A stretch of DNA of 64,000 bases from an uncultured Colwellia sp. (GCA_913049915.1 CAJWZC010000009.1:386-64385), one strand, 5' to 3'. Numbered from the stretch's first letter, positions 5,768 through 64,000 are shown. The notes: generated by a model from the sequence alone, not told the origin. Numbers and translations: made by a program.

Positions 5768-5844
5768 TGTTTGTTTTTTCCTTATATTTAGCCATAATCA
5801 TTCAAAAGGCAGACGAATTAGACCTATACGACAAAAATATTACA

Positions 5845-5906
5845 TGGTACAGGAACTCAACAATTGGTCTGTCCAATAATAATTGGTAATTACTATGTGT
5901 GTCAAG
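5845..5906 (-). promoter_or_regulatory. Promoter/operator module copy A (operator 5862-5877; -35 TTGACA at 5905-5900; -10 TATTAT)
   Basis: AATTGGTCTGTCCAAT ends 24 nt from GTCAA, the same spacing as five other copies; lies upstream of the GH105-kduI-kduD run. Confidence 0.8.
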
Positions 5907-6082
5907 GTAACTTTAATTCTTGAGCCGATACATATAATAAAAACAATGATTACAAATAAAATAAAGGCAGAATATAAGCAACTTAACAGCGTTCCTTTTA
6001 AAATAAGAAAAGCACGAATGATATTAATTGGTCAAATAGGCGCGTATGAATATCTCATTTACCGAGTCAATAAGAAAATTAT

Positions 6083-18516: not shown

Positions 18517-18637
18517 ATTTCAATTTATTAAAAAATTTTAAATCGACTTGAGGTAAACTTTAAAAGTGAGCCACCTTCAGAAGCGTCAGGTAGTGCTTAA
18601 TAACAGTGGAGTCATACCTATGAGAAGCTGCTTCTAA

Positions 18638-19357
18638 TTATAAATTAAAATTAATGGTCGTCGTAGCGTTATCAAGGTGGTTCTTCATCGCTGTACGCGC
18701 CCTTTCAGGGTTTCTTTGCGCAATAGCCAAAACAATCTTTTTATGTTCATCAATGCAAAGTCCCTGCTTCTTAATTTCTTCTTGAATACATTTAGTAAAT
18801 ATAGACTCTGAACGTAATTTCCATAACCACTGTATCGACTCTTTCATCGCTGCATTATCACAATATTCAGCAATGGCTACATGCAATTTAGTATCTGCTT
18901 GTTCAAAAGATTCTGCATTTATATCATCAGCTTCCATTTCCCTAATAATATTTTTTAGTTCTTGAATTTGTTCATCACTAATTCTTGCTGCCGTTAATGC
19001 ACATATTTCTGGTTCAAGGATATAGCGCATTTCTAAAACTTCAAAGGGGCCAATTCCACTACCAATGAGGGCGGTATAGCTTTTGCTAGTATTATCAGTA
19101 ATATAGGCACCTGATCCAGTACGTATATCGATAAGACCTGATAATTCAAGCGCTATCATGGCTTCACGTATTGTTTGACGGCTAACCTGTAATTTATCTG
19201 CCAGAGCCCTTTCTGCAGGAAAGCGATCGCCAACTTTAAAATAACCATTATCAATTAACGAGCGTAATTGTTCCGCAACTTTGAGATATAATTTATCTGT
19301 TTTTTTTTCTTCAACTTTTATCGCTTCAAACTGCATTATCGCACTCACTGTCCACAC
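18638..19357 (-). CDS. GntR family, FadR-subfamily transcriptional regulator
   Basis: wHTH FPAERALADKLQVSRQTIREA...RTGSG plus FCD effector domain (EMRYILEP, ADTKLHVAIA, EHKKIV). Confidence 0.92.
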   Translation of the reverse strand: MWTVSAIMQFEAIKVEEKKTDKLYLKVAEQLRSLIDNGYFKVGDRFPAERALADKLQVSRQTIREAMIALELSGLIDIRTGSGAYITDNTSKSYTALIGSGIGPFEVLEMRYILEPEICALTAARISDEQIQELKNIIREMEADDINAESFEQADTKLHVAIAEYCDNAAMKESIQWLWKLRSESIFTKCIQEEIKKQGLCIDEHKKIVLAIAQRNPERARTAMKNHLDNATTTINFNL

Positions 19358-19433: not shown

Positions 19434-19455
19434 TTACTTTGTTCTGACCCTAGTT
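19434..19455 (-). repeat. REP-like unit
   Basis: TTACTTTGTTCTGACCCTAGTT. Confidence 0.75.
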
Positions 19456-19475
19456 ATTATATTTAAACAGCCATA

Positions 19476-26046: not shown

Positions 26047-26082
26047 AGTTAATCATTCAGTTAATCATTCAGTTAATCATTC
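26047..26082. repeat. 12-bp tandem repeat x3 (AGTTAATCATTC) overlapping a sulfatase stop codon
   Basis: AGTTAATCATTC AGTTAATCATTC AGTTAATCATTC. Confidence 0.85.
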
Positions 26083-27422
26083 AACTGAATTCTTCCTTTT
26101 AATAGTTCGGGGAACATGGCTACCGCTTCTAGCTCGGTATCTATACCTTTATCGCCGACACTTTGTTGCCATTTTTTAAGTCTGCTTAACAAATCAGCTT
26201 GAATGTTTTGAAATTCAATTTTTCCTGCCAAATTATTATCTTCTTTAGCATCATTTTGCAGGTCATATAATTCAAATTCCGTTGATGTTTTCTGCTTAGA
26301 CTTACCCTTTGGGTTGCCGGCCTTAATATTGATATTGTGAATGAGTTTATAACGTTCGGTAACCACAGCACGAATGGGATATGGTGTATAAATTTCCTTA
26401 ACACCCAAGGATGTATAACTAAGAAATAGATCTTCACGCAATGCCGTTTCATCTCCTTTGAGCAGGCTAGTGATGCTATTTCCATCCATTTCAGCCAGAG
26501 GTTTGCCACCACCTAATTCCATTAGGGTCGGCATAATATCGGTAAAGTCTACTAGTTGCTGTGAGGTCGAATTGGCTTTGACCTGTCCTGGCCAACGTAC
26601 AATCATAGGTACATGTACAGCTGGTTGGTACAAGGTAAATTTTGAATATGGCGTATTTGAACCATGGTCACTGACATAAATAACAATGGTATTGTCAGTT
26701 TTGCCGGCTTCATCAAGCATCTTAAGGAACATGCCAAATTGATAATCTGTGAGCCAATTGTTAGCTGGGTAGCCTTCAAAGCCATTTTCTATTTTACCGA
26801 GTTGAGGACCATGGGGCAAAGTAGAGGCAACAAACATCACAAAAGGCTTTTCACTTTTTGCGTTTAAAAATTCTTCAACACCTTTGTAGTCTATGCCCTT
26901 ATGTTTTTTAGCTACTTTTCCGCCACGCTCAGTACCTTGTACGGGTTTACCCGTATGGGGATATTTAGCGTCCCAAACAAAGGTATTATTTGGTCTGGTT
27001 GGCTTTTTGTGTACACCATCTTTTCCAACAAGTGCCGCGCGATAACCCAGCTTATTCATGATGGTTGGCATACTTGCCACATCTTTTTTCAATCCAGAAT
27101 GGTTGGGATGTGAGCCATTATGAATGGGATACATGCCGGTATACAGCGATGAACGTGCCGGTGTACATATCGAAGTGGTGGCATATGCTTTAGTAAACAG
27201 CATGCCTTGTTTGGCGAAATTATCAATGTTTGGAGTCTGTTTTGGATCGCCCCCGTAGACACCTACCGATTCAAGGTATTGATCATCGGCGACCCAAATC
27301 AAAATATTTGGCTTTTCTGTGATTTGTGCTTTTTTACTTGGAGAATCTTTACTTAGCGCCGCGCCATTGAAAAACATCAAACTGGCCATTATGATCAAAT
27401 TTACTTTCAAAATATTTTTCAT
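26073..27422 (-). CDS. S1 sulfatase (N-sulfoglucosamine sulfohydrolase-like)
   Basis: WVADDQ, CTPARSSLYTGMYP, GKDG, PHGP, SDHG, VPMIVRWPG. Confidence 0.88.
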   Translation of the reverse strand: MKNILKVNLIIMASLMFFNGAALSKDSPSKKAQITEKPNILIWVADDQYLESVGVYGGDPKQTPNIDNFAKQGMLFTKAYATTSICTPARSSLYTGMYPIHNGSHPNHSGLKKDVASMPTIMNKLGYRAALVGKDGVHKKPTRPNNTFVWDAKYPHTGKPVQGTERGGKVAKKHKGIDYKGVEEFLNAKSEKPFVMFVASTLPHGPQLGKIENGFEGYPANNWLTDYQFGMFLKMLDEAGKTDNTIVIYVSDHGSNTPYSKFTLYQPAVHVPMIVRWPGQVKANSTSQQLVDFTDIMPTLMELGGGKPLAEMDGNSITSLLKGDETALREDLFLSYTSLGVKEIYTPYPIRAVVTERYKLIHNINIKAGNPKGKSKQKTSTEFELYDLQNDAKEDNNLAGKIEFQNIQADLLSRLKKWQQSVGDKGIDTELEAVAMFPELLKGRIQLND

Positions 27423-27494: not shown

Positions 27495-27569
27495 TGGTAT
27501 AGCCACCCTGTCAACCAATCCACGAATTGGTCTGTCCAATACTACTGGCAACATATCATACAAGTCAAG
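27495..27569 (-). promoter_or_regulatory. Promoter/operator module copy B (operator 27525-27540; TTGACT-N18-TAGTAT)
   Basis: AATTGGTCTGTCCAAT 24 nt from GTCAA (27564); secondary TGGTATAGCCA at 27495. Confidence 0.8.
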
Positions 27570-27693
27570 ATAACTTATATTTTAGAGTAGTGATATAGGA
27601 AATAAATAATCTACAAAATAATTTTAAACATTAAGAATCAGATACTTAAACAGGTCATATTGAAGATATAAAGTTTAGTAAAGTTAAATAAGT

Positions 27694-27733
27694 GGGGTCA
27701 GAACAACATTAAAGTTAATTTTGTTCTGATCCC
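27694..27733. repeat. Degenerate inverted doublet of REP-like unit
   Basis: GGGGTCAGAACAACATTAAAGTTAATTTTGTTCTGATCCC. Confidence 0.7.
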
Positions 27734-27766
27734 GGTTAATTTGTGCTGAATTCATCTACTAAGCGT

Positions 27767-29954: not shown

Positions 29955-31310
29955 TTAACTTGGACCATGAAAAGAGGCTCCTTTAACTGGCTCCGACTCC
30001 AATGCAGGGCTACCTTGGCTTACTTGATAGTCGTTATTGGCAGCATCCCGAAAAAGTGGATCTGCGTAGCTAGGGTCATCTCCAGAATTTGATACGATTG
30101 CGTCTCCTTGTAAAAAGAAAAGATTGCCGGCGACAAGATTATTGGGCGCGTGATCCACCAATAGCAGATCGCCAGTCGAGCCAGTAATAATATTGTTCAA
30201 TAGTCGATTACCTTCCGGAGCCACATTTTGTATGCCTTTCTCCTCTTGATCTGCACCGCGGCTATCCCCAACAATAATACCCGTCCGCCCGGCATTGACG
30301 ATAGTATTATTGGCTATCAAACACTGACCGGCTGCCTGATAATGACCGCCCTGTTCCTTGGTCATGCCATAAAACAAACGGATGCCAGTATCCCTACTGT
30401 TGACAATAACATTGTCTTTAACAACGTGACCGGTACCGCAAATACGGATGCCGCCCCTGCTGGAATAAAAACGATTTCCTTCAATTAAACAATTTTGGCC
30501 GCCACGCATGACCAGCTCGCCATCACATTGATTAAATACATTGCGGCGATAAATATTTCCCGCACATTTATTGCTGATAATCTCAGCTTCGCCATCACAG
30601 CGTTCAAATATGTTTTCTTCAACAATAGTACTCACCACTACGTGTCCATAGGTCGGTTGATTGGTGCCAATTTTAATGGTCTCTCTACCATTTACGCCCG
30701 CGTCAGGAATATCTTGGAAGTGGTTGTTGCGAATGACATTGCCAATAGGCACGCCATATTCGTAAATATCTTCATTCATTGTTAGGTTTACACAACGGGC
30801 AGCGATATTGCTAAAATGACAATGAGTGATGAGATTCTTTACAGCGCCAACAGAAATACCTATTGCTGCTTTATCCCCACCACTATTTTCAAACACACAA
30901 TTGGCGATCGAACAATGATCGGAACGATTGAAGTACAAGAGATTTTTGTTAAAATTGCATTGTTCGAATCGAAGACCGTCAACCGTGACATAACGTCCAG
31001 TAATCAAAAAATCGCTAGTTCCGGTAAAGACAACCCCACCAACACTCTGTGGTTGAATCAATATGGGTTGCTGAGATGTTCCCCTACAATCAAGTTCGAC
31101 AGACCAGCCATGGTAGCGGCCATTTTTGATGATAATAGTATCGCCCGGCTTTGCTGCACTAATGGCTGCTTTTAAAGAGTCCTCTGATTCGACAGGCTCT
31201 TGGTCAACCGCAAACACTGCTGCTTCAATCGACAATACGCGATAAGAAACCATGCTACTGGCAAGGCCAGCTGAGGTTAATGCCAAAAACTTACGCCTAT
31301 TAATATTCAC
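29955..31310 (-). CDS. Tat-exported PL6/chondroitinase-B-like lyase (copy 3)
   Basis: NRRKFL; ETIKIGT, EIISNKC...GELVMRGG. Confidence 0.82.
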   Translation of the reverse strand: MNINRRKFLALTSAGLASSMVSYRVLSIEAAVFAVDQEPVESEDSLKAAISAAKPGDTIIIKNGRYHGWSVELDCRGTSQQPILIQPQSVGGVVFTGTSDFLITGRYVTVDGLRFEQCNFNKNLLYFNRSDHCSIANCVFENSGGDKAAIGISVGAVKNLITHCHFSNIAARCVNLTMNEDIYEYGVPIGNVIRNNHFQDIPDAGVNGRETIKIGTNQPTYGHVVVSTIVEENIFERCDGEAEIISNKCAGNIYRRNVFNQCDGELVMRGGQNCLIEGNRFYSSRGGIRICGTGHVVKDNVIVNSRDTGIRLFYGMTKEQGGHYQAAGQCLIANNTIVNAGRTGIIVGDSRGADQEEKGIQNVAPEGNRLLNNIITGSTGDLLLVDHAPNNLVAGNLFFLQGDAIVSNSGDDPSYADPLFRDAANNDYQVSQGSPALESEPVKGASFHGPS

Positions 31311-31448
31311 AATAAAATCCTTATGGAAAGTTTGTCAGTGAGCTCAGAAAATTTAGGGCTGACTGTTGAAAGTAAATATTGTATATACCCGTGTTGCCCA
31401 AAATACAGGACTAAAGCAAACGAGACCCATACGACAAAAAACTTTTTA

Positions 31449-31568
31449 TAGTATAACCACCCGACCAACTAACCCTATAATTGGTCTATCCAAGACGACT
31501 AATAACACATCATGAAAATCAATCATTGGTCTGTCCAAGACTACTAAAAACATAATATACAAGTCAAT
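31449..31568 (-). promoter_or_regulatory. Promoter/operator module copy C with duplicated operator (31479-31494 and 31524-31539)
   Basis: AATTGGTCTATCCAAG and CATTGGTCTGTCCAAG; the second lies 24 nt from GTCAA (31563). Confidence 0.78.
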
Positions 31569-31836
31569 ACAACTTTAACTTTTGAGCAACCAAATAGGCA
31601 GATAATTATATTATTAATACAACTTAACCTATAAAATCAATAGTTTAAATTATGACCCTCTGGTTTACCAAATAAAAACAAAACACCAATAAAATTGGTC
31701 AAACAGATTTAGCCTGAACACTTGACTAAACAGGTTCAATATAGTATTTTTGAATAAATGTCTATGCTAAATAATATTATTAGACATATTTTACTTGTTC
31801 TAAAATTATCATAAAAATGTAAGGAATATATATCAA

Positions 31837-35129: not shown

Positions 35130-36158
35130 CTATTTCTGGCAGTCAATCATAATGTGAATGGCATCACCGAGTTGCTCGTCTCGCTTAGTAAACGCTTCGC
35201 TGATTTCTTCCATGGTGTAGGTATGGGTGATCATTTCAGCGACATTGACCAAACCCTGCTCGACCATATTCACACCTTCAGTAAACATACGCCGCATATC
35301 GATGTCGCGGCGCGGCTCAGTCGAGACAATTGACAAGCGTTTACGATGCACCTTTAACCAATCAAACGGCTCATTGCAGGTACCTATGCAACCGTACATA
35401 ATGATGCGTCCTCCCATCGAAGCACAGTCGACGGCATCAATCATGCCCGCGCCCTCTAAGAGACAGGGAATGACCACTTCAAATCCATCAGGAAAATCAG
35501 CGCCAATGGTTTCCATGGTAAGTGCATCATGACCCGATAATTTATAGGTCTTGGTCGCCCCATATTGTTGAGCAAGTGCTAAATTGCGATCTTTAAGGTC
35601 AGTCACAATTAAATTACGCGGTAAAAATAAGCTGACCACTTGGGTCATGACCAAACCAGAAACACCCTGTCCCATAATCAGCACATCAGTATGGGTCGAT
35701 ATAGTGCTTTACTCAGCGGCATGAATAATACCGGGCAGCACTGCGATTGGTGAAATGTCTTCATCACGAAAATGTTCTGGAACGACATGGACGTTAAATG
35801 GTTTACATACTATGCATTCGGCAAAGGCGCCCCACACATAACGACAGCTTACGTGCTGTCCTACTTGCAGGCCGCATACGCCAGGGCCAATTTTTTCAAT
35901 CACACCGCTCACTTCATGACCAAGCCGACTTGGCGTACTGAGGAATTCTGGCGAGCGTGCGCCACGGTAACTCTCCAAATCGGAACCACAAATACCGACG
36001 TAACGAATTTTGATACGGATCTCGCCATGACCTGGCTCAGGAATGAGCGCATGACGCATGCTAAGCTTGCCTGGTTCATCAAGCACAACGACGCGCTGGG
36101 CACCGGGCGTACCCACATCCACGAGATCTAGTTCAGCAATATTCATTTTGGTAGCCAT
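35130..36158 (-). pseudogene. Zn-dependent (MDR) sugar/uronate dehydrogenase split by one in-frame TAA at 35709-35711
   Basis: GICGSD, GHE and G.GVSG motifs. ORFs 35709..36158 and 35130..35684 share a frame and are joined by IHAAE*STISTHTDVLIMGQG. Confidence 0.85.
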
Positions 36159-36662: not shown

Positions 36663-36928
36663 TATACCCATCACACTTCAAGATGCAGATTTAAGCAAGT
36701 CGAGAAAGGGCCAGGTACAACGCATTGATTGAAGAAAATAGTAATTCTATTATCGAAATCAATAACGCCGTAGATGACCCTTTATCGCCTTGCCCGCAGG
36801 GAGCTAAGCTAGATCATCAGTTCAGCGTTGCGATACTTGATAAGGGAATGACCATTATCTGCGTAACGCGCCTTGAGCTGATTTCCTAGCTTAGCTCTGA
36901 AACTGCATCATGAGGTATGATGGGTATA
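36663..36928 (-). mobile_element. ERIC-like MITE copy 3 (266 bp, opposite orientation, more diverged)
   Basis: TATACCCATCACACTTCAAGATGCAG...CTGCATCATGAGGTATGATGGGTATA. The reverse complement shares TCAAGGCGC, AATGGTCATTCCCTTA, GCAACG and GCGTTATTGAT blocks with copy 1. Confidence 0.78.
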
Positions 36929-43879: not shown

Positions 43880-46045
43880 TTAGGGTGTAAATTTCTTAAC
43901 AGTAGCGCCAGGGTTAACGGGTTCTTTCAGCCATGTTGGTTGAGTGAAAGCGCCATTGCGGGCGATGTCCCAAACTTCCAGACGTACCCAAGTCGCACGA
44001 CTCAAGTCGATGGGGAAATTCATATTTTCCCGACCAAATTCCCGGCTCTGTGACATATTAATGGTATGAGTTTTTATCTGATCACCTTCGCCCCAAATAA
44101 TTTCAGCAAAACCTAGCGGAAAGGTCCATTCAACGTCGACTGTAACTTGAGATTTAGTGATTTTATGATCATGCAGCAGCACCTCACCGGTACTAACAAA
44201 GAAGTCACCGCGTCTGAGTACGTCCGATACCGCTGACCAATCTCCGCTATCCATATCCGGAAGTTTAGGCAACTTCAGGTAGTTAATATTCATTTGACTG
44301 TAGAGTTCAGATTCAAAATCAACATAGAAGATATCTCCTGCGCCAACTAATTTCTTTTTGTAACCCCACTGAGACATGTCATCAAGGAGTTTCAAGGCAC
44401 GGCGACCCAAGCGAGGCTCGGAAAGATCAGAAGGTATTGCCTTCCACTCCGCCCCTAAAAAGACCTCATCATCTTTGAAGAAATCTTCTGTTGCATAGTC
44501 ATCGGGGAATAGTTGTGAGCCCTTCACCCGTGGATGAGCAGTGAAAGCCAAACCGCCTTCACGTTTTAACATTTCATAAACTTCAGCAGAGTTACCAAGC
44601 CGGTAAACCGTGCCATAGGGTTCTAACTGTTCGACAAAGGGTTCATTTTCTTCTCGGCTTTTGACGAAATAAACCGGCTTGGGAAACAAGTAATTCCAAT
44701 GACCACCAAAGTGAGCATTGGCTTCTTCTCCGGGTAACATCACGAACTCATCATCAGAATACTTCTTAGCAAGGTCGAACATGGCTTTAAGTTGTTTAAA
44801 TCGTTTTTCCCCGATGTCTCTGCCATTATAATCACCACAACAATGGAACTCGGCCAGGTGCAAAATTTGCACATTTAGACTTTTCATTACCTCTTTAAAT
44901 TCAAGTGCGGTAGTGAAAGGGGATATTTTGCCTTTCTTTTTGCCTTTTTTGTACACTTTCATCTTACCCATCTCTTTACGCGTCATTGCCGGATGGTAGT
45001 GCTCGGTGTAGGTTTTATAGCCTTCAATGATTTTGAATTGATCGCCATGGGTATAGCGCTTGACACGTTCGAGTGTATCTTCTGCCTTAGTGGGACTGAG
45101 CAAGAGAAATGCGCCCATACGCTGCACTGTGCCCACTTTCGCATCCACCCAAGGAGCATGGGTATGATCACCTTCTTTTTCCTGACGAATACCAATAATT
45201 CCGGCGCCTGCTTTCACATAACCTCTATTGTGGGCATATTTATTAACTGGCCAAGAGGATGCATGAGGTGGCGGGAAAAAGGCAATGGTGCCGTTATCAT
45301 ACTCAGCCATGACTGTTCTGTGTACGACCTTGAGCGGAATGGCTTTTTTAGACGGAACCTGACGCACGATTTGTTTAGTTTTATTATCCTTATATACGAT
45401 CATCGGCACTTGGGTTTGAAAAAGCCCTTCGTAAATATAAGCGACCGAAGATTGTTCGGTGCTCATCAAAGCTTCCCAATAAAGCAAGGGACTGCCAGCA
45501 TAGATATTAAGCACCAAATCACCCGAGAAAGAGCCACTACTGAACGTTGAAAAAACCAGTTTTACCCGGCCCCCCTCTGAACTGACTTTGACAGACTTTA
45601 AGTCGAGGCGCGAAGTAAAGGTTTTTGATGGTCGCTCATTTGGCGTATCAAAAAAGATATACGGCCATTCTTTCTTACTGAGAGAGTTGCCGCGCGACTT
45701 GCCACGAGAACCAATGGTGACAGGAAAGTCAGGTTGAATATTTTGCGCCAAAATCGTAAATGAAGATGCCCCATTCTCAGCATAAGGATGGGCATATGAG
45801 ATGGATTTCATTAGCGGATTTTTACCAGAAATATCCAATACCAGCTGATAGGTAATTTTGTCTGCTGCCTGCCAATCTAGCGTTAAAGCATCTCCAGCAT
45901 GTGTAATTTTTACTGGACTTAAAGGGTTATATTGGCTCAAGTCGACCTGTTGAGCAACTACCTGCTGGTTAGCTATCTGTTTGGCACACAAAGGAAGACT
46001 ACAGCAAACAAGGAAAATCACTGCAAGAAAGTTATTTTGAGTCAT
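43880..46045 (-). CDS. Secreted hypothetical protein with C-terminal PHP/amidohydrolase-like metal-binding motifs
   Basis: Signal peptide; EHYH, AEFH, PGEEANAHFGGHW, AHPR, GAGD. Confidence 0.5.
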   Translation of the reverse strand: MTQNNFLAVIFLVCCSLPLCAKQIANQQVVAQQVDLSQYNPLSPVKITHAGDALTLDWQAADKITYQLVLDISGKNPLMKSISYAHPYAENGASSFTILAQNIQPDFPVTIGSRGKSRGNSLSKKEWPYIFFDTPNERPSKTFTSRLDLKSVKVSSEGGRVKLVFSTFSSGSFSGDLVLNIYAGSPLLYWEALMSTEQSSVAYIYEGLFQTQVPMIVYKDNKTKQIVRQVPSKKAIPLKVVHRTVMAEYDNGTIAFFPPPHASSWPVNKYAHNRGYVKAGAGIIGIRQEKEGDHTHAPWVDAKVGTVQRMGAFLLLSPTKAEDTLERVKRYTHGDQFKIIEGYKTYTEHYHPAMTRKEMGKMKVYKKGKKKGKISPFTTALEFKEVMKSLNVQILHLAEFHCCGDYNGRDIGEKRFKQLKAMFDLAKKYSDDEFVMLPGEEANAHFGGHWNYLFPKPVYFVKSREENEPFVEQLEPYGTVYRLGNSAEVYEMLKREGGLAFTAHPRVKGSQLFPDDYATEDFFKDDEVFLGAEWKAIPSDLSEPRLGRRALKLLDDMSQWGYKKKLVGAGDIFYVDFESELYSQMNINYLKLPKLPDMDSGDWSAVSDVLRRGDFFVSTGEVLLHDHKITKSQVTVDVEWTFPLGFAEIIWGEGDQIKTHTINMSQSREFGRENMNFPIDLSRATWVRLEVWDIARNGAFTQPTWLKEPVNPGATVKKFTP

Positions 46046-46264: not shown

Positions 46265-46289
46265 GGTAATTGCTAGCTAATCAGTAATT

Positions 46290-46337
46290 AACTAGGATCA
46301 GATCAAAGTTAAATTTAACTTTGTTCTGACCCTAGTT
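46290..46337. repeat. Inverted doublet of REP-like unit
   Basis: AACTAGGATCAGATCAAAGTTAAATTTAACTTTGTTCTGACCCTAGTT. Confidence 0.82.
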
Positions 46338-46342
46338 ATTTC

Positions 46343-49339: not shown

Positions 49340-49418
49340 GTTAGATGATTTAATAATATTTATTTTCTCTCATGTTGTTGCGTCTGATGATTCCAGCACT
49401 AAAAAACGACCTTAATTT

Positions 49419-49441
49419 AATTAGGGTCAGAACAAAGTTAT
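49419..49441 (+). repeat. REP-like unit
   Basis: AATTAGGGTCAGAACAAAGTTAT. Confidence 0.78.
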
Positions 49442-54380: not shown

Positions 54381-55982
54381 TTAGAAGGGTTCTTCTAAAT
54401 GGACAATGCCTGACTCAACCGTTTTCCACCAAGCATCATATTGCGCAATTAGCTCGGCGAGTTTTTCAGGATGGCTTGATGCCAGATTATTGGTCTCGGT
54501 TCGATCTTTACTCAGGTCATATAACTCCCACTGACCGGTAGCAAAGCTCCAAAGTTGATCGTTATTTTGTTTTTTCTTAGATTCATGCACCACCAATTTC
54601 CAGTTGCCGTCAACCACTGATTTACCACTGGCCCACTGATTAAAAACAGGAATTTCGCGTTGCACCGTGCCATTTTTAAAGGCTGACAATAGGCTCATGC
54701 CATCAAGCGTACCCACTTTTTCGCCCTGAAATACTTTCGGATAACTTGCGCCTGTGATATCGATAAAGGTCGCCAGAATATCAACAAGATGTGATGATGT
54801 TTGATTAACCGGCCCACCTGATTTGACTACACCGGGCCAATTGACGATGAATGGGGTAGCAACACCACCTTCAAAACTATCAGTTTTATAGGCTTTAAAT
54901 GGCACATTCGAAACATTAGCCCAATGGCCACCAATGGAAGACCAACGGTCAATAGCGCCAATCTCGCCGTCGCCTATATCGAGCGCTTGAGCCGAAGCAC
55001 CATTGTCGGATAAAAAGATGATTAGGGTATTATCAACTTCACCAGTATCTTTGAGATGAGCCAATACACGACCAACATTCTGGTCGAGATTATCAATCAT
55101 CGCACCATAGACTTGCATCACACGAATTTGATCTTTTCTTTCTTTATCACCCAGATCATTCCATGATTGAAACATTGCCTTTGAACGTTTATGAGTGTCC
55201 TTGCTGATGATACCTAGCTCAAGTTGGCGCTCATAGCGCGCTTTGGCGATGGCTTCATAACCAACATCATAAACGCCTTCGTATTTGGCAATGTCTTTTG
55301 GCCATGCCTGAATAGGATCATGTGGTGCTGTGTAAGACAAATACATAAAAAATGGTTGTTCATCATCTGACTTTTCGTGACGTTCAAGTAATTCTATGGT
55401 CCAATCGGTAAAAGTATCGGTGCTATAATAGGTTTTCTTTGGCGGTGTGAAAGGTTGTACACATTTGGTATCAAAGCAAAAATGCCGAATATTTTGTCTT
55501 TTGTGGGCAGGAAAAGCTTCACCATCACGCTGATAACCGGGGTTAAAATGATTTGCCGCTCCGTCGCGCATCCCCCAATAATGGTCAAAACCCATGTCGT
55601 ATGGGTTATCGGATGAATGGTGCTTGCCGACCATTAGCGTTTTATAACCAACACTTTGCAGTAGCTCACCAAAAGTGACACTGTTTTGATAACTACCACG
55701 ACTGGCACCCATGCCGACCTTTTGTGGAAATTGTCCTGTCATTAAGGAAGCGCGAGTAGTATTACATTTTGAGGTATTGCGAAACTGATTAAAGCGCATG
55801 CCTTCTTTTGCGAGATTATCAAGGTTAGGGGTTTTCACCTCGCTACCATAAGTACCGATATCGGAAAAACCCATATCGTCAACCATGATGAGCAAGATAT
55901 TAGGATTTTTGGCTTGATCGGCAACAGCAGATAATGATGCCATAATCAACCCGATTGATAAAATTAGTGTTTTCAAGGGCAT
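54381..55982 (-). CDS. S1 arylsulfatase (AtsA-like)
   Basis: MVDDMGFSD, variant motif CNTTRASL, GKHH, YTAPHDP, SDNGA, EGG..TPFIVNWP. Confidence 0.88.
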   Translation of the reverse strand: MPLKTLILSIGLIMASLSAVADQAKNPNILLIMVDDMGFSDIGTYGSEVKTPNLDNLAKEGMRFNQFRNTSKCNTTRASLMTGQFPQKVGMGASRGSYQNSVTFGELLQSVGYKTLMVGKHHSSDNPYDMGFDHYWGMRDGAANHFNPGYQRDGEAFPAHKRQNIRHFCFDTKCVQPFTPPKKTYYSTDTFTDWTIELLERHEKSDDEQPFFMYLSYTAPHDPIQAWPKDIAKYEGVYDVGYEAIAKARYERQLELGIISKDTHKRSKAMFQSWNDLGDKERKDQIRVMQVYGAMIDNLDQNVGRVLAHLKDTGEVDNTLIIFLSDNGASAQALDIGDGEIGAIDRWSSIGGHWANVSNVPFKAYKTDSFEGGVATPFIVNWPGVVKSGGPVNQTSSHLVDILATFIDITGASYPKVFQGEKVGTLDGMSLLSAFKNGTVQREIPVFNQWASGKSVVDGNWKLVVHESKKKQNNDQLWSFATGQWELYDLSKDRTETNNLASSHPEKLAELIAQYDAWWKTVESGIVHLEEPF

Positions 55983-56142
55983 TATTTTTTCCTCATTAAT
56001 ACCATATCGCAGTCACGATCAAATGAATAAGCAGACTGAGTGTTTGATCTGCCTTTAATGCAAAATTTTTATAGTTTAGTTGATAACTTACTTCTGGCGA
56101 ATTAGGCCTAAACGACATTAAACTATACCATTTTACTTTTCA

Positions 56143-56205
56143 TGGTATAGCCACCTCATTAATTGGCCTGTCCAATATTACTCGTAACATATCATATATG
56201 TCAAG
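56143..56205 (-). promoter_or_regulatory. Promoter/operator module copy D (operator 56161-56176; TTGACA-N18-TAATAT)
   Basis: AATTGGCCTGTCCAAT 24 nt from GTCAA (56200); TGGTATAGCCA at 56143. Confidence 0.8.
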
Positions 56206-56419
56206 ATAACTTTAGTTCCTTAACAGCAGTAATTGCTGATTGAACAAAATAAATCATAATAATATCTTTATTTAGATATATATTAACGACTTAGCTTAAA
56301 AATTTAAAAGTTATCAATTAAAAGCCACCAAGGAAATAAATTGGTCAAATAGGTGTTAATAAAAGGTCTAAATATAAGCAACGATTTTTCGTTAATCCGC
56401 TTTTGGTTACGCAAATAAA

Positions 56420-56453
56420 AAACTCCCCTACATATTACTATGCAGGGGAGTTT
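56420..56453 (-). terminator. Rho-independent terminator for the PL6-CBM gene
   Basis: AAACTCCCCT...AGGGGAGTTT stem with an A-run (T-run on minus strand). Confidence 0.8.
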
Positions 56454-56564
56454 CTTTATTAAATGAATAGTTTGCCCTCGGCACTGTCTCTATTGAGCGT
56501 GTTTTAGGCAGCCTATTTTTTATTGCCACGATGTGGCACTTTATAAATATGCGCAGCAGATTTA

Positions 56565-59273
56565 TTAGAACTCAATATCAATATAAGCTTTATGGCTGCC
56601 ACCATTATACTCCTTGGTAAGCATATAGAAGAAAATGCCTGTTTCATCGGCCTCCATAATCGCTAAGCTGAGGGTACCATCACCATCGACTTCACCTTGA
56701 ACCAAAGCGGTTATATCAAGGGTTCGCCAGCCATAATCGGCGTCAGCCACAGTAAATGAGCCTGCTGAACTAGCCAAATCTGGCAGTTCATCCCAAGTAA
56801 GTCCGTTTTCTGTCCAGTTATCGTGGTCAATCGGCTTTATTTTCTGTTTAACACTATCACCATTTTTGGTATAGCCATAGACGTTAAGGGTCGCTGAGGT
56901 AATGGTTGCACTATTGGCCGCACTGACATCAAACTTCATGACAATAATTCTATCGGAGTCTGCATCGCCGCTGCCCTCTTTACTTTTGATGGTATCATCT
57001 GTGCCATAATCGGTAGTGGCAGAGCCTTCACCTCTTTGAACATAAGTGTCAGCAGTTACATTTGCAGTGTAACTTGGTACCTCACTTGAACTTGCATAGC
57101 ACAGTGCATCCCAGCCATAAAAGTAACCCGCCGCAAAACAGGCACTTTCATCACCATGATAATCACTTTCATTATCATCAACTGGGGCTGCTAGTATTAT
57201 TTCAAGGTAAGGGTTTTCGTCGCTAAAGTCGGACGTTTTTATCTGTTGGGCTACATCTAGACCATTAGTTTGGCTGAACGCTAGACTTAAGATGCCGTCG
57301 CCGTCGATTTGGGTTTGCACATAAGCGGTAATATCTACTGTCTGCTTTTGATAATCATCGCTGTTATTGGTGGTCATTGAGCCGATACTATCACCAATTT
57401 CGAGATTATCATTCCAGTTTACTTCATGCTGATCCCAGCCATCAGCGCTTACTGCACCGATATCGGTTGTGATAGTGGTGTTGTTACTGTTTTTGGTGAA
57501 TACATGGAGAATAGCGCTGCTAATGTTGGCATCAATGGCGCTAACATCAAACCTCATATAACCAACCTTGTCCTTAGTACTACTATTTTTAACCTTTATC
57601 TTAGTAACTGATCCGAAATATTTATCCGGCTTACCGCTGTCAACATAGGTTTCGGCTACTGGAAACCTGATAATAGGTAGCGTAGGTTTAGGGAGTAAAT
57701 CAGTGGGGCCAACGTCCGCTACCGTTAACGGCTTATTAATACTAGCGGTTGTCGTGTACTCAGCAGCACCCACATCATGAATTGAATCGCGTGATAAACC
57801 ATGTATGTCAATATTGGCTAAGCTGTAGTTAGTGTTAACCGCATTAACTACGGCACTAGAAACAGTAGGGACAAACACACCATCAACATCAGCGGATAAA
57901 CCTGGATTAATTTCATCGATTTGTGCAGCAGTAATGGTTCTACCGAGTACGGCTAATTCATTGCTTATGGAAGTGGAAGAACCATAAGCAATATTACCAA
58001 TAAAAGTAATGCTAGGCTCAATATCCAAGTACTTTGGGTCATCATCAAACAATGCAGTGCTGCCGGCATAATAAATAGCGTTGTTAGCGATAATTGAATT
58101 TATAGGCGCATTAATATGTTGAAACGGGTCACTACCTACCTGCCCAATAACCAGCGAAGGTTTTGAGTTAACAATAGTATTGTTGTAAATTTCTAAATCT
58201 TCGGCACTTCTATATTCGCTGCCATTGCCGCCAGTGCCAGCATATATAGTAATACCCGCTTTTTTAGTGTTTTTAATGTGATTGTTATAAACTTTATGTC
58301 CATTACCAATAATACGAATACCGCCAGTGCCATTAATGCCACCACCATCAATAAAATTACCATAGACTTGGTTATCATCACCATTACGTAAGGTAATAGA
58401 ACCTTGATTATCAAGGAATGTATTGTACCTAAAGATGTTGCTGTCAGATTTACTAGAAATAATCTCAGCTTCTCCGTCTATTTTATAAAATAGATTGTAT
58501 TCCGCAATGGTATTGGAATCAGTTCCTGCCTCGGCACCACTGCCTATCTTAAGGCCTTCTTGTCCGTTTGCACGATCTGGGTAATTGACAGAAATACGCG
58601 TATCGAAGTAATTATGATGAAAATGATGATTATCCTCAAAATTAGGGTAGTTAGCATCAGTCGAGTCGCGACGATTAACTATCACCATAACGCCACTCAT
58701 CTGCATATTGGTAAAATGATTATGGTCTATTTCATTATGAGAGCCACGCACATTAACCCAGTGGTACCTAACCTCTGAATCTTGGCTGTTGAAACCATCA
58801 ATAGTGGTATTTGTTAAGCGACTGTGATTCGCAAAAGTGCTGGTATCTGTAGAGTCATCATAAAAACGAATGATCCCGCGACCATCAGCTCTTTCACCAT
58901 TTTGAAAATGCAAACCATCGACGATTAAATAATCACCCGCAATTTTTAAGCCTGAATTTCCTTCCAGAGAAACACCACCTTTGCTTTGGGCTTGCAACAG
59001 TATCGGCGAACTTGCCGTGCCATCGACATTAAACAATATTTCTAAGTTAGTATAGGTACCATCTTTAATGACGACGGTATCTCCTGGGACAGATGCTGCA
59101 ATCGCATCTTCAATTTCTGTTGGTGACCCTGCGGTTCTGACCGTAGCAAAAACACTTCCTGCCAGGCTGATGCTTAATAGTACCACCACTGTTTTACATA
59201 AACGGCTTCTCAAACGCATTGTTAAATCAACCAAAGTTAACTTCTTTATATTTTGTAATAACTTTAAATGCAT
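56565..59273 (-). CDS. Secreted PL6 lyase with two C-terminal CBM96/DNRLRE-like modules
   Basis: EGLKIGSG, EIISSKS...GSITLRNG; two A(E/D)TYV...(Y/V)M(R/K)FDVS...SA.L.V modules. Confidence 0.78.
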   Translation of the reverse strand: MHLKLLQNIKKLTLVDLTMRLRSRLCKTVVVLLSISLAGSVFATVRTAGSPTEIEDAIAASVPGDTVVIKDGTYTNLEILFNVDGTASSPILLQAQSKGGVSLEGNSGLKIAGDYLIVDGLHFQNGERADGRGIIRFYDDSTDTSTFANHSRLTNTTIDGFNSQDSEVRYHWVNVRGSHNEIDHNHFTNMQMSGVMVIVNRRDSTDANYPNFEDNHHFHHNYFDTRISVNYPDRANGQEGLKIGSGAEAGTDSNTIAEYNLFYKIDGEAEIISSKSDSNIFRYNTFLDNQGSITLRNGDDNQVYGNFIDGGGINGTGGIRIIGNGHKVYNNHIKNTKKAGITIYAGTGGNGSEYRSAEDLEIYNNTIVNSKPSLVIGQVGSDPFQHINAPINSIIANNAIYYAGSTALFDDDPKYLDIEPSITFIGNIAYGSSTSISNELAVLGRTITAAQIDEINPGLSADVDGVFVPTVSSAVVNAVNTNYSLANIDIHGLSRDSIHDVGAAEYTTTASINKPLTVADVGPTDLLPKPTLPIIRFPVAETYVDSGKPDKYFGSVTKIKVKNSSTKDKVGYMRFDVSAIDANISSAILHVFTKNSNNTTITTDIGAVSADGWDQHEVNWNDNLEIGDSIGSMTTNNSDDYQKQTVDITAYVQTQIDGDGILSLAFSQTNGLDVAQQIKTSDFSDENPYLEIILAAPVDDNESDYHGDESACFAAGYFYGWDALCYASSSEVPSYTANVTADTYVQRGEGSATTDYGTDDTIKSKEGSGDADSDRIIVMKFDVSAANSATITSATLNVYGYTKNGDSVKQKIKPIDHDNWTENGLTWDELPDLASSAGSFTVADADYGWRTLDITALVQGEVDGDGTLSLAIMEADETGIFFYMLTKEYNGGSHKAYIDIEF

Positions 59274-59364
59274 AATATTAATACTCTTTGAATGTTAAAT
59301 AGATTTGTTTATTATTTTAGTTATCTCTTTGTTCATCCTTTTGTTCATCCTTTTGTTTATCTTT

Positions 59365-59435
59365 GTTACTTTTATTTCTTCCTCTTAAGCATAAATTCTC
59401 TATTTATACTCGTCATCATTCAGGCAAATTAGCGC
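59365..59435 (-). promoter_or_regulatory. Conserved 71-nt 5' leader, copy 1
   Basis: Identical at 69 of 71 positions to 62804-62874. Confidence 0.75.
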
Positions 59436-59455
59436 ATGATGTATAAAATGCAAAT

Positions 59456-59517
59456 TGGTATGCCCCCTTAAAAATTGGACGGACCAATAATACCAAGCAC
59501 ACATTATATATGTCAAT
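59456..59517 (-). promoter_or_regulatory. Promoter/operator module copy E (operator 59473-59488; TTGACA-N18-TATTAT)
   Basis: AATTGGACGGACCAAT 24 nt from GTCAA (59512). Confidence 0.8.
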
Positions 59518-59621
59518 ATGTGTTCAATAAAAACTCAATAAATGTTTAGAATTCAATCTGCAGTGTATTTGAAGAAACACCACGAATCTTAACATGTGAA
59601 TACTATCAATAACTTACAGTA

Positions 59622-60735
59622 ATACCAATGATATTAAGTTTGTGATCTAATGTCTTTTATTTTATATCTCTCAATATAAGTATTATGAGCCCCTTTGATC
59701 GCATTGATTTCAAATCTCTTATCGCTAAGGAAACGAACGGACGCATGCGCGTACGACTAATGGTACTTTCTCATATAAAGGAAGGTATTAATAATTCACA
59801 AACACCAAGAAATCTACATATTAGCCTTCGTATTGTTAATGATTAGGTTAAAAGTTCTTATTCTCAAGGACTTGAAGGATTAAAAGAAAAGCCTCGCTCT
59901 GATCGCCCCTCACGTTTAAATGAAGCTCAACTTGCGCAACTAAGCGAGTACATTCGCAATAATAGCATTAAAGAAAGTGGTGGTAGACTTAACGCACAAG
60001 CGCTTGTTAACTATATTACTCAAGAATTTAAACTCAATTATGGCATTTCTAATGTTTATCGACTGCTTCATCAGCTAGGTTTTTCATGGATAACGAGCCG
60101 CTCCAGACATCGAAAACAGTCGATAGAAATCTAATATAATTTTAAAAAAATTCGAAATGGAAATGATCCTCACGATCCCGTGGAATGTGTGCCTTAAAAA
60201 GGTTGACGTATGGTGCCAAGACGAAGCTCGATTTGAGCAGCAGAATACGACAACACGGCTCTGGGCAGAGAAAGGCACAAGGCCAAGAGCCGTAAAACAG
60301 CAGCAGTTTGAATATTCCTATCTTTTTGGTGCCGTTTGCCCAGCAACAGGAGATACCGAAGCATTAATAGCACCGTGTATGAATATGGATGTAATGAAAA
60401 ACATCTAGCGCTAATTTCGAAAAAAGTGCCTGAAGGGCGTCATGCTCTGATCGTTGCAGATGGTGCAGCTTGGCATCAATGTCACTTAACGGATAGATTT
60501 GAAAACTTATCAATTATTAAGTTGCCGCCTTATTCGCCAGAGTTGAATCCAATAGAGCAAGTTTGGCAATGGCTCCGCCAAAATGAACGCGCAAATAGGT
60601 GCTTCAAGGGATATGACGATATTGTTGATGAATGCAGTAGAGCGTGGAATAGCTTTATATCTGATGCCTCCAGAGTGATAAAATTATGCTCTAGAGACTG
60701 GATACAAGTGGGAAGTTAATTAATGGAATTCGTAT
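59622..60735 (+). mobile_element. IS630-family element, pseudogenised
   Basis: OrfA from 59685 (HTH, KPRSDRP; in-frame TAG at 59844); TTTAAAAAAA junction; OrfB DEARF, DGAAWH, PYSPELNPIE with a frameshift; imperfect ends ATACCAATGATATTAA / TTAATGGAATTCGTAT. Confidence 0.85.
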
Positions 60736-61136
60736 AACTTTTTAAAACTTAAAACCACAAACAATATTAATTGGTCAAATATGAATGTATTAACAGTTCG
60801 AAATATAAGGAATAAATTCAGATGGCCTCAGCTAAATTTGTGTGGTTTTATTCGAAGAATAAACGATATATGACGAGTATGAAGATAAATAATACTCTCG
60901 CTCAGTACATTTTAATTCAAGAAGTCAAGCTAAAAATAAAAAATCACCTACTGTTGATAAACCAGTTCTGAATATGGTTTTTATTTGCTTCTATTCTTGT
61001 TTATTTAAATAGATTTATCGGCATAGAGTCATTATTAGAGAGAAGTGGTCTTATCTTCTTAGTTTTCTTTATTGGTTAACCTAATTATACAGTGTAGGTG
61101 TTTTTCGCTCATCCGCTTTTGGTTACGCACATAAAA

Positions 61137-61170
61137 AAACTCCCCAACATATTGCTATGCTGGGGAGTTT
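61137..61170 (-). terminator. Rho-independent terminator, paralog of 56420-56453
   Basis: AAACTCCCCA...TGGGGAGTTT. Confidence 0.8.
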
Positions 61171-61211
61171 TATTAAATTAAGAGCTCTACTGTCGGCACT
61201 GTCTCTATTGG

Positions 61212-62744
61212 TTAGTTGCTACAAGATTCTGGAGCAGCGGTTGTTTGTTCCAATGGCATGTAAGATTCATTGGGGAATGAGCTAGCGACTTTATATTGAT
61301 TAGGATAATCTGTATAACCGACACATTCTGATGATGTATCACCTTGACAACCACCCCTTATATATAAGTATTCGGTATAACCAAATCCAGGACCACCACC
61401 ATTACCGTATCCCTCTTTATACATTTTTTTCACTGCTTTAAAAGGCGTTATTTCTACACCGCCATTGTATTGATTCAAAAGGATCCAGCGTGCCATTTTT
61501 TTAGTGTCTGTATCACAATCTCCGGTGCCATTTACAAACTCATGGATCAGACCATCAGCTTCATACATAACCGTGGAAAAGGTGTAGCTTATTTTCTCAA
61601 GAAGGTCTTCATCAATAAATTGGCTCGACTCGTTTGAATGATAACCCATTGAATATAGCTTAACTATTGCCTGAACATCTATTCCACCATGACCTGCATC
61701 TTCCCATTTACTTGAATAAACAGGTTCAGCATAATGCCACTTTATTTTTGAACCATTGACTCTTTTTTCGTCATCTCAAGATTCCAACAAGTTACCGATT
61801 AACTCTTCATAGAAGCCCTTGCGATTATTATATTCATCTTCGTCAACTATCGCTAACGCCTTTAACGTATTAGCCATGACAACTGCAGCTGCAAAACCGC
61901 GGTTAAAGGCTATTTCTTCACCCCGTTTTTTATCTGCACTGCTGAACAATTCATCAAGATCTTCAAAACTACCTTTATCTGGGTATCTAAATAACCAACC
62001 TTCATCGTAGTAATCCATCGTGCTTGAATCAATTCTTTTGCCATTTGAGACCCATCTTTTCTTAATATCGTTATCTTGTGGGCCCAATGATTTTGAATCT
62101 AACAGAACAAAATCATCTAAAGTAATGAGTACATTTCCAATCCACCCCTTGGCAACATCCGCGTAGGTTTGGGTGGTTGAGCCACAAATAGTTTGATTGC
62201 CTAACGTTGGATGGGACAGAATATAATTAGCGGCCTCAGCAATAGGCTCAACAATCATCATTGTTTGCACCAAATTTGCCACATAAACCGTTGACCCGTT
62301 AGCTGTCGTTTCTTCGGCCCAAGCATTTAGGGCTTGCCCTTGTATGTAGTCGTTTTGTGCTCCACTAGAGCGAGACGTTTCTGACCGTGAAAAGATAAAG
62401 TCTGCGTGATGCTTAAACTCTTCCATAAAGCCAACGCTTGTTGAATTATTACAAGATTGTCCGGTCATGCGGTGCATATTGAGCAGACCTCTCATCAAGT
62501 AGCTACCACTCCATGCCCACTTGCCCTTCCTATTGTCTGACCACTTTTTGTTAGTTAACTGATATATGCCATTGTCTTCCTTGTATGTGTCATACCAACT
62601 ACTGTAAGTATCGATCTCATCCTGAGTAATTTTTGTTCCTAAACTCAGACCCGTATTCGGCCCGTAAAGACTTGCTGCACAGATACTATAGCTTGTTGCT
62701 AATGTTAATGAAGCGGTTAATAAATACTTTGCTACTTTGTTCAT
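61212..62744 (-). pseudogene. Secreted hypothetical protein (probable alpha/alpha-barrel) interrupted by one in-frame TGA at 61776-61778
   Basis: ORFs 61776..62744 and 61212..61649 share a frame, joined by 42 stop-free codons (LLES*DDEKRV...WEDAGHGGIDV...YSMGY); signal peptide; WAWSGSYLMRGLLNMHRMTG. Confidence 0.78.
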
Positions 62745-62803
62745 CTTGTCACCTCTTGTTATAGTTTTTTATTTTTTTATTTTAGTTATCCTTTTTTTTT
62801 GTT

Positions 62804-62874
62804 GTTACTTTTATTTCTTCCTCTTAAGCATAAAATCTCTATTTATACTCGTCATCATTCAGGCGAATTAGCGC
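62804..62874 (-). promoter_or_regulatory. Conserved 71-nt 5' leader, copy 2
   Basis: 69/71 identical to 59365-59435. Confidence 0.75.
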
Positions 62875-62895
62875 TAAGCTATATAAAACTCTACT

Positions 62896-62958
62896 TGGTA
62901 TATCCGTCTTAATAATTGGCCCGTCCAATTATTAAGATAACATATCATAAATGTCAAT
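62896..62958 (-). promoter_or_regulatory. Promoter/operator module copy F (operator 62914-62929)
   Basis: AATTGGCCCGTCCAAT 24 nt from GTCAA (62953). Confidence 0.78.
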
Positions 62959-63235
62959 AAACACTCAATAAATGTTCAATAAATGTTCAATATTTAAACA
63001 GAGTATATAAGAATTTGGCCCTTCATGAGAATACCGAGAATATTCTCATTCCCGACGAGATTAACCAATAGTGACGGTTATCACTATCTCATTAGCGTCT
63101 TAGATTTAATACTCTACTTTATGTAGACCTTAGATGATTCTAATGTCCGCTTTAGAGATTGTATAAATAATCGTATGCTAAATATTAAGTAATATTTTGG
63201 GTGAAAATAAATAAAAGTATTTAAATTACAATAAT

Positions 63236-64000
63236 CGCAAAAGCAAAAAATTATCAAAGGTATCCTGCTGAGTTTAAACGTATGGCGTTACTCATAGCTT
63301 CTGAGGACGGTATTACTGCTAATCGTGTTTGCGAAGAACTAGGGATCATTTTTAGGCAATTAAGTCGTTGGCGTGATGAGTTTAGCTTAAAAGGTGATGA
63401 TGCTTTTAAGCGAAATAAACAAACCAGTAATAATGAATTAACTCAGTTGAAAAAAGAGTTGGCTAAAGTAAAAAAAGAGCGTGATTTCTTAAAAGATGCG
63501 GTGGTGTTATTCGCCAAGGAGTCCGGTTAAAGTTTTGTTGTATTAAGCGGTACCGCAACAGCTATCCCATAAAAATGATGTGTAATGTTTTAGATATTTC
63601 ACGCCGTAGGTATTATGCCTGGCTTAGTAGACCACTATGCAAAACTAAGGAGGAAAACATTAAGCTAACTTAGAAAATATCAACAATATTTGAGCAAAGC
63701 AGAGGTGTATACGGAGCACCAAGAATAAAAGCGAGTCTTGATTCCCAAGGGCATTGCTACGGCAATAATAGAGTGGCTAGATTGATGCAAATAGAGCGAT
63801 TAAAAGGCCGCCCTAGGCGTGTGTGGCGAAGAACGGCCCAATCAAATCCATACGCCGATCCTGCACCTAATTTACTACACCAAAACTTTGTTGTAAAAAG
63901 GGCTAATCAAGTTTGCTCATCAGACATAACGTACATCCAAATCAGACAAGGATTTGTCTACTTGGCCGTCACATCGCGATGAACGCGTTAGGGATGGCTA
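63236..64000 (+). mobile_element. IS3-family element remnant (orfA plus degraded orfB), runs off the window
   Basis: OrfA (RYPAEFKR)MAL...ELAKVKKERDFLKDA..LFAKE; orfB fragments YGAPRI, NRVARLM, PNLL.QNF, SDITYI...YLAV with stops and frameshifts. Left boundary uncertain (may extend to about 63122). Confidence 0.82.

Follow-up and report, generated by a model that had tools for sequence, protein, structure and literature searches.

Unrelated genes in matching expression frames of a Colwellia polysaccharide utilization locus: probable local copying of the control regions of one regulon

We analysed a 64,000-nt stretch of DNA from an uncultured Colwellia sp. (GCA_913049915.1 CAJWZC010000009.1:386-64385; genome 3.8 Mb), here called the window, which carries a large polysaccharide utilization locus (PUL). 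Two of its genes, cargo 1 and cargo 2, encode unrelated proteins and stand in matching non-coding frames, each made up of a promoter/operator module, a nearly identical leader and a homologous 3′ region. A preliminary description of the locus suggested that these frames may be plug-in cassettes that work without an integrase. Our analysis makes it likely that they are locally copied control regions of one GntR-type regulon, and not mobile cassettes. In the population the array is fixed and static, and the loss of cargo 2 is under way.

Read along the minus strand from 63000 to 54400, the locus consists of three single-gene units in a row, with all genes in the same orientation. The first comprises module F, leader F, the 510-codon cargo 2 gene (62744-61212) and 3′ region 2. 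The second comprises an auxiliary (aux) element, a decayed IS630-family insertion sequence (IS), module E, leader E, the PL6-CBM96 gene of cargo 1 (59273-56565) and 3′ region 1; the third consists of a short aux element, module D and a sulfatase gene (55982-54381). The order given in the preliminary description therefore holds, except that the IS630-family relic between the units had gone unmentioned. The parts of the frames, from upstream to downstream, are:

62947..62992 (-), 11-nt tandem repeat ATAAATGTTCA, 4.3 copies, abutting the -35 box of module F
62888..62957 (-), module F, with a predicted sigma70 promoter (-35 TTGACA at 62952-62957, -10 AATAAT at 62928-62933) and the putative operator ATTGGCCCGTCCAAT at 62915-62929
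62792..62874 (-), leader F, shared core of the 5′ untranslated region (5′UTR), with the putative fossil Shine-Dalgarno sequence (SD) AAGAGGAAG at 62817-62825
62745..62791 (-), linker F, A-rich, with an 8-nt tandem repeat, followed by cargo 2's own SD
61212..62744 (-), cargo 2, gene of a secreted orphan protein of 510 aa, predicted (alpha/alpha)6-barrel, with a TGA at 61776-61778
61101..61210 (-), 3′ region 2: block CAATAGAGACAGTGCCGA, terminator hairpin 61136-61171 with T-tract, block GCGTAACCAAAAGCGGAT
59447..59516 (-), module E, -35 at 59511-59516, -10 at 59487-59492, putative operator ATTGGACGGACCAAT at 59474-59488
59353..59435 (-), leader E, shared 5′UTR core, putative fossil SD AAGAGGAAG at 59378-59386
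59274..59352 (-), linker E, A-rich, with a 12-nt tandem repeat (59328-59361), followed by the SD and ATG of PL6-CBM96
56565..59273 (-), cargo 1, PL6 (Chondroitinase_B) lyase with a C-terminal CBM96, assigned by Pfam
56385..56495 (-), 3′ region 1, lying 70 nt after the stop codon, with terminator hairpin 56417-56458
56135..56204 (-), module D, putative operator 56162-56176, predicted to drive the sulfatase gene 54381-55982

Recomputing the leader core returned the 69 identities in 71 positions described before (59365-59435 vs 62804-62874), within a similar block that reaches 59353-59435 vs 62792-62874. The 3′ homology of about 110 nt was likewise recovered, with 96 of 113 positions identical between 56385-56495 and 61101-61210, and was found to extend further, resuming beyond a 286-nt gap in copy 2 (56316-56381 vs 60746-60812). 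Between these flanks the coding sequences show no relationship (BLASTP best E = 1.6) and the folds differ, a PL6 beta-helix with CBM96 standing against a predicted alpha/alpha barrel; the remote homology that the preliminary description had named as counting against it was thus not seen. Both 3′ regions contain a G+C-rich hairpin of 16–18 bp followed by a T-tract (z = -5.0 and -5.1; none of 200 shuffles as good), and between the copies one base pair of the stem has changed from T-A to A-T, a compensatory substitution. Because of the strong hairpin, the T-tract and the compensatory change, both can be assigned as maintained intrinsic terminators, a prediction from sequence.

The promoter/operator modules form a wider family than the two frames. 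Modules D, E and F are 64–76% alike in pairwise comparison, and the start of the 5′UTR behind D (56092-56128) is 78% like the start of leader F. In a scan of the 7.4 kb around them, the three modules gave the three best sigma70 matches (TTGACA, 18-nt spacer, TAATAT-like; 10–11 of 12 positions), and in each a palindrome ATTGG-N5-CCAAT covers the -10/+1 region. Patterns of this type are enriched in the window, with 11 matches against 3.96 expected, a count reached by none of 100 shuffles. Scanning the whole genome with nhmmer and Infernal, using a profile of promoter, operator and 5′UTR, returned eight family members, seven in the window and one on another contig (C11). Their alignment spans about 160–200 nt and runs past the operator into the 5′UTR. 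The claim that both cargo genes share a promoter/operator module is correct as far as it goes, but the family has eight members and not three. The remaining members in the window, and a regulator gene of the locus, are:

5840..5925 (-), module before the GH88/DUF4861 gene 3716-5767, family member by homology
27525..27610 (-), module before the sulfatase gene 26073-27422, family member by homology
31426..31587 (-), two tandem modules before the PL6 gene 29955-31310, family members by homology
18638..19357 (-), GntR/FCD (FadR-subfamily type) regulator gene (PF00392, E = 6e-18; PF07729, E = 2e-26)

The genes behind the window's modules are unrelated to one another: GH88, two sulfatases, PL6 (tandem pair), PL6-CBM96 and cargo 2. 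On C11, the module (4300-4830) precedes a 959-aa protein with a TonB-dependent receptor-like N-terminus and a sulfatase. In its 5′UTR the 8-nt sequence AAAACTAT occurs in four tandem copies, similar to the A-rich repeats of linkers E and F.

In eight promoters, a core TTGG(T/A)-N3-NCCAA lies over the -10/+1 region. This core fits TKGT-N2-3-ACMA, the operator consensus of the FadR subfamily, cited in work on AusR, a GntR repressor that controls the alginate system of Zobellia (PMC7641319); most copies deviate in one half-site at the fourth position (T/A). The palindromes are likely candidate operators of the PUL's GntR/FCD repressor, and we infer that the protein encoded at 18638-19357 represses the modules. 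Judged from their homology and distribution, the modules would be the common control region of one regulon and not the private chassis of a cassette.

The leaders point to re-use of a control region that once served a different coding sequence. In the window, no start codon follows AAGAGGAAG; 50–100 nt of A-rich short tandem repeats intervene before the cargo's SD and ATG. A counterpart is found in L024 (JABSOI010000010.1), a locus of the Alteromonadaceae metagenome-assembled genome (MAG) G084, which belongs to a genus other than that of the window. Its leader aligns with leaders E and F via GAATGAT(G/T)ACGAGTATAAATAGA to GCT(C/T)A(T/A)GAGGAAGAA, and there the corresponding stretch is an SD 9 nt before the ATG. 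Since AAGAGGAAG thus aligns to the real SD and ATG of the CBM96 gene in L024, the alignment indicates that it is a fossil SD in leaders E and F, and that promoter and 5′UTR were re-used before a new coding sequence.

The same locus holds the closest orthologue of the sulfatase 54381-55982 (73%), together with orthologues of KduI (94%), GH88 (81%), the GntR regulator (81%) and the 721-aa protein of 43880-46045 (86%), but the genes are arranged differently from those of the window. Four modules lie beside orthologous PUL genes in G084; none was detected in about 380 other genomes sampled from the family and order, and a BLAST search with module F plus leader against 40 relatives returned no real match. 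One L024 module stands before a CBM96 gene (13889-16180), the last 614 nt of which share 78% identity with the end of PL6-CBM96 (56564-57174); its N-terminal two-thirds are unrelated to PL6 and instead 41% identical to the protein of 15161-17545. Compared with the L024 gene, PL6-CBM96 is therefore chimeric: promoter/leader and CBM96 end are homologous (74–78% at the nucleotide level), and the catalytic N-termini are unrelated. Downstream of the L024 gene stands a diverged 3′ region, consisting of CTATAGGGACAGTG, a hairpin with T-tract and AACCCAAAG. Because L024 shares the leader, the CBM96 end and this 3′ region, frame E seems to correspond to the L024 frame, and frame F to be a copy. The suggestion that the PUL grew by re-using a regulatory chassis is in this respect borne out, by the homologous frames, the fossil SD and the different catalytic part in the other genus.

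That the copying was recent is suggested by the mosaic identity of the frames. Between E and F the leader is 97% identical, the promoter about 68% and the 3′ region 85%. By segment, the counts are 41/60 upstream of the -35 box, 30/43 from -35 to operator, 27/40 over the first 40 nt of the 5′UTR, 69/71 in the leader core, 96/113 in the 3′ region and 53/69 in the aux element. The leader stands apart from the upstream part (Fisher p = 3e-7) and from the 3′ region (p = 0.011). In the promoter part, E and F (68%) are no closer than other pairs of the family (F with D, 74%; D with the module at 27526, 83%). The E frame and its L024 counterpart are uniformly 60–71% identical in all three segments, with 67% in the leader part. 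For this reason the leader does not seem unusually constrained, and its near-identity within the window would reflect recency.

Selection could in principle have produced the same identity, if the leader (71–83 nt) and the 3′ blocks served as functional RNA or DNA elements of the two transcripts, for example as a site for a small RNA, an RNA-binding protein or a second regulator. The perfect conservation of the 18-nt blocks CAATAGAGACAGTGCCGA and GCGTAACCAAAAGCGGAT amid diverged stretches, the compensatory stem change and a motif GAATGAT(G/T)AC..GTATAAATAGA, repeated in the 5′UTRs of several module family members of both genera, speak for such elements. We nevertheless regard this explanation as unlikely: the leaders E and F fold no better than shuffles (z = -1.3 and -0.04), an Rfam scan returned no leader family at threshold, and the leader part of E against L024 shows no conservation beyond that of the other segments. 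A mini open reading frame (ORF) in the leader (MMTSINR(E/D)FMLKRKK) was also considered and rejected, as it lacks an SD and neither the L024 nor the GH88 leader keeps its frame.

On the simplest reading, promoters E and F would be old paralogs, and a later, local copy or conversion tract would have spread the leader core. The 5′ edge of this tract would lie inside the 5′UTR, at about 59436/62875, and the 3′ region would have been copied in the same or an earlier event. Tandem duplication followed by replacement of the coding sequence, ectopic conversion and crossover within the leader are candidate mechanisms. Some points weigh against this reading. The order and mechanism of copying cannot be reconstructed from two genomes; the divergence of the leader (3%) and of the 3′ region (15%) requires two events or a later conversion of the leader; and RecA-type conversion would not come easily to blocks that started out only about 70% alike. 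Moreover, the occurrence of one frame with three cargos in two genera is also predicted by recombination-based exchange.

Such an exchange would use leader and 3′ region as homology arms for double crossover, without an integrase, and would swap whole coding regions between PULs, strains or genera. One frame is indeed found with three contents, namely an unrelated beta-helix part with CBM96 in L024, PL6 with CBM96, and the alpha/alpha-barrel gene. In addition, the junctions of cargo 2 are tight, with the 3′ region beginning 3 nt past the stop codon, and the homology between cargo 2 and its homologue on contig L014 (84% identical) ends at the ends of the coding sequence. Horizontal movement of the PUL is itself probable. 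However, four-fold sites of cargo 2 and L014 already differ by 40%, which makes the end of homology at the coding-sequence ends uninformative on swapping; plain divergence accounts for the loss of flank similarity. The arms are also short (71–113 nt), and the promoter parts upstream of them are old paralogs (68%).

The distribution of the frames bears on the same question. The genome holds just two copies of the near-identical leader and 3′ region. Every public metagenome contig spanning the locus, whether from Tara Oceans, JGI or other samples, shows the same array, both IS relics included, at an identity of at least 99.8%; no contig shows variable cargo at the orthologous positions or any units other than these two. 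Differences within the population are limited to a TGA/TGG site in cargo 2, an 8-nt indel in linker F, a copy of the 11-nt repeat at the -35 box of F (one fewer in one metagenome contig) and a few single-nucleotide polymorphisms. An apparent 155-nt expansion of this repeat, in contig L019, is actually a scaffold gap of Ns. A 22-mer probe identical in leaders E and F was absent from 185,579 species genomes, and its sole match in the JGI metagenome collection, on a contig with no similarity to the genome (L015), was discarded as a chance match. With two copies only, no cargo polymorphism in several samples and no further copies in these collections, recombination-based exchange is an improbable account of the array. 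The plug-in cassettes of the preliminary description find no support either: a restriction to two fixed copies, which it had itself named as counting against them, is what was found.

A broader form of the idea, in which the conserved frame is a landing pad for repeated recombinational installation of catalytic genes across strains and genera, we hold to be decidedly improbable. If true, the three occupants in two genera would be momentary states of a cassette exchange that assembles PULs without an integrase.

Recombination machinery of the kind that moves cassettes was not detected. By Pfam, no tyrosine recombinase (IntI-type) was found among window ORFs of at least 100 aa or among called genes up to 10 kb beyond the window, and the only transposase remains in the window are decayed DDE_3 and rve/HTH_Tnp_1 fragments. 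No attC-like site was found; the 3′ element reads as an intrinsic terminator, with solely sub-threshold, terminator-like matches in Rfam. As for hallmarks of transposons or miniature inverted-repeat transposable elements (MITEs), there is no inverted repeat between the unit ends, and all modules lie within the PUL regulon. Terminal inverted repeats between leader start and 3′ region end were rejected, since just 9–10 of 18 positions match and the 5′ motif belongs to the old module family. The aux elements and IS relics beside the units are:

60746..60900 (-), aux element 2, with the TTGACCAATT box at 60746-60812 and the palindrome TTTATTC-N3-GAATAAA at 60847-60863
56316..56381 (-), aux element 1, a short version with the TTGACCAATT box
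59580..60740 (+), decayed IS630-family element between aux element 2 and module E, with DDE_3 in at least three broken frames; ends approximate
63225..64000 (+), decayed IS3-family element at the outer edge of the PUL, with HTH_Tnp_1 orfA at 63282-63530 and rve fragments; continues past the window end

The proximity of these relics raises the question of an IS-mediated or Campbell-type event, in which DNA comprising aux, module E, leader, cargo 2 and terminator, either as a circle or borne by an IS, entered through a crossover in the leader, duplicating the leader and exchanging the promoters of both genes. Identity changes sharply at the leader's 5′ edge (59436/62875), as expected after such a crossover, and decayed copies of the IS630 and IS3 families adjoin both units. 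The incoming DNA, however, must already have carried a near-identical leader, which merely pushes the question back, and the duplicated 3′ region stays unexplained. The relics belong to different families and do not form a composite transposon arrangement; that of IS630, of which the genome has one copy only, sits within an otherwise complete intergenic block (from aux to module E), like a simple later insertion. We thus consider this scenario very improbable indeed.

The TTGACCAATT box at 60746-60812 is homologous to 56316-56381 and to 5995-6050, and the aux element is kept in the MAG of the other genus. A weak inverted match of 55 nt had suggested that the box might be a terminal repeat of IS630; this was rejected, as aux keeps its position upstream of promoters in both genera without an IS. 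The 17-bp perfect palindrome TTTATTC-N3-GAATAAA recurs upstream of several promoters in both genera (60847-60863; about 2150 and 7040 in L024) and might bind a second regulator.

Cargo 2 had been described as one gene at 61212..62744. This is true of part of the population but not of the genome analysed, where an in-frame TGA at 61776-61778 splits the gene. Four of eight population contigs carry TGG (Trp) and an intact 510-aa product, and a homologue 81% identical to cargo 2 (P0002) has Trp at the same position. For these reasons the TGA is a segregating nonsense allele, and the gene is being lost from a natural population.

The protein is without match in Pfam, in PDB sequences or among window paralogues, and only about 17 relatives were found among 1.84 billion representative proteins. 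AlphaFold2 modelled the intact allele as a helical protein (pLDDT 76.5, pTM 0.81), and the model weakly matches solely (alpha/alpha)6-barrel enzymes, namely GH105, GH88, GH76, GH8, GH116 and a polysaccharide lyase (E of at least 4e-3, target-normalised TM of at most 0.59). With so few relatives, no Pfam match and a predicted barrel, cargo 2 is a candidate for a new family of carbohydrate-active enzymes. The L014 homologue also adjoins a sulfatase gene. That sulfatase is only 25% identical to the one at 54381-55982 and was rejected as its orthologue, and the ancestral gene order cannot be inferred from L014. The contig is cut 124 nt upstream of the gene, and no module was detectable in the 124 nt present.

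Taken as a working model, each unit would be a single-gene transcription unit that consists, in order, of an aux box, a sigma70 promoter under a palindrome, a long 5′UTR, the gene and a bidirectional intrinsic terminator. The ancestral frame would have surrounded a CBM96 gene, as it still does in the other genus. A PL6 module with its own SD and ATG may then have replaced the 5′ part of this gene, stranding the former SD, now a fossil, within the leader. Next, a local copy or conversion event would have put leader core and 3′ region around the alpha/alpha-barrel gene, downstream of the older regulon promoter F, and would thereby have wired this gene into the regulon. The IS630- and IS3-family elements would have inserted beside the units later and then decayed.

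The PUL comprises seven PL6 genes, two PF05426 lyases, two GH88, a GH2-esterase, about nine sulfatases, KduI and an SDR. Its G+C content (window 41.4%, genome 36.7%) and its occurrence in two genera only, shared with one other-genus genome among about 380, suggest that the whole PUL was horizontally transferred together with its control modules. Beyond the IS3-family relic lie HipA-like, AAA_13, PIN/PhoH and RapA genes.

Further repeats occur elsewhere in the locus. A MITE-looking repeat of about 268 nt with internal inverted symmetry is present at 13811-14077, 18009-18274 and 36734-36928, the first two copies being 81% identical. Palindromic intergenic repeats of about 50 nt, REP-like or terminator-like and distinct from 3′ regions 1 and 2, stand at 8378-8427, 46286-46341, 27686-27741 and 18492-18521, with further copies at 19436-19458, 49418-49440 and 6616-6652. 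A zinc-type alcohol dehydrogenase at 35130-36158 is divided into two ORFs (ADH_N 35709-36158, ADH_zinc_N 35130-35684), and is probably another pseudogene or a frameshift.

Re-use of promoters before non-homologous genes is known in prokaryotes. Putative mobile promoters (PMPs) are defined by at least 80% identity over at least 50 nt, within -150 to -50 of the start codons of non-homologous genes, and more than 4000 families have been described, some common to several genera (Matus-Garcia, Nijveen & van Passel 2012; PMC3575422). In the present case, E 59355-59423 and F 62794-62862 are more than 93% identical and lie inside both -150 to -50 windows, and the coding sequences behind them are not paralogous (best E = 1.6; beta-helix against predicted barrel). 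As with PMPs, similar non-coding sequence precedes non-homologous genes, the family extends to a second genus, no mobile element is recognisable and the effect would be that gene regulation is rewired. Unlike PMPs, the frames match on both flanks, the 3′ terminator region being duplicated too; the copied part is mainly 5′UTR with a fossil SD, the promoter proper being an older paralog; and the copies are adjacent within one PUL.

A second parallel is AusR of Zobellia galactanivorans, a repressor of the GntR/FadR subfamily, whose regulon took in a lyase gene of horizontal origin once this gene had gained operators (PMC7641319). Both loci have a GntR/FCD regulator and TKGT-N2-3-ACMA-type palindromes over the core promoters of many separate degradative genes, and in both a newly acquired gene would join the regulon by gaining a control region. 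The Colwellia promoters differ in being of the gammaproteobacterial sigma70 type with putative operators, as opposed to the flavobacterial -33/-7 promoter of AusR, and in being homologous over about 200 nt and not merely in the operator motif.

Likenesses to mobile systems are looser. Like integron gene cassettes, the array consists of unrelated single genes, each with a structured non-coding element at its 3′ side; but there is no integrase and no attC, the 3′ element being a G+C-rich terminator hairpin with T-tract, each gene has its own promoter, and only two units exist, without variation in the population. Like Correia, ERIC and REPIN/MITE sequences, a repeated intergenic sequence furnishes neighbouring genes with promoters and terminators; but terminal inverted repeats and target duplications are lacking, and the copies are not dispersed, with all eight modules in the PUL regulon and the 3′ region present twice.

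The locus thus reveals no new kind of mobile element but ordinary promoter reuse. What it adds to known cases is the matching terminators, the fossil SD and the same frame with different catalytic parts in two genera. It offers a clean, datable case in which a PUL would wire new genes into its regulon by copying promoter/5′UTR, recognisable by the fossil SD, along with a terminator, so that no new operator had to evolve. For the study of GntR/FadR-type repressors in marine gammaproteobacterial PULs, the locus provides a defined set of putative operators and promoters. It also draws attention to an orphan, secreted and predicted (alpha/alpha)6-barrel protein that may be a new carbohydrate-active enzyme.

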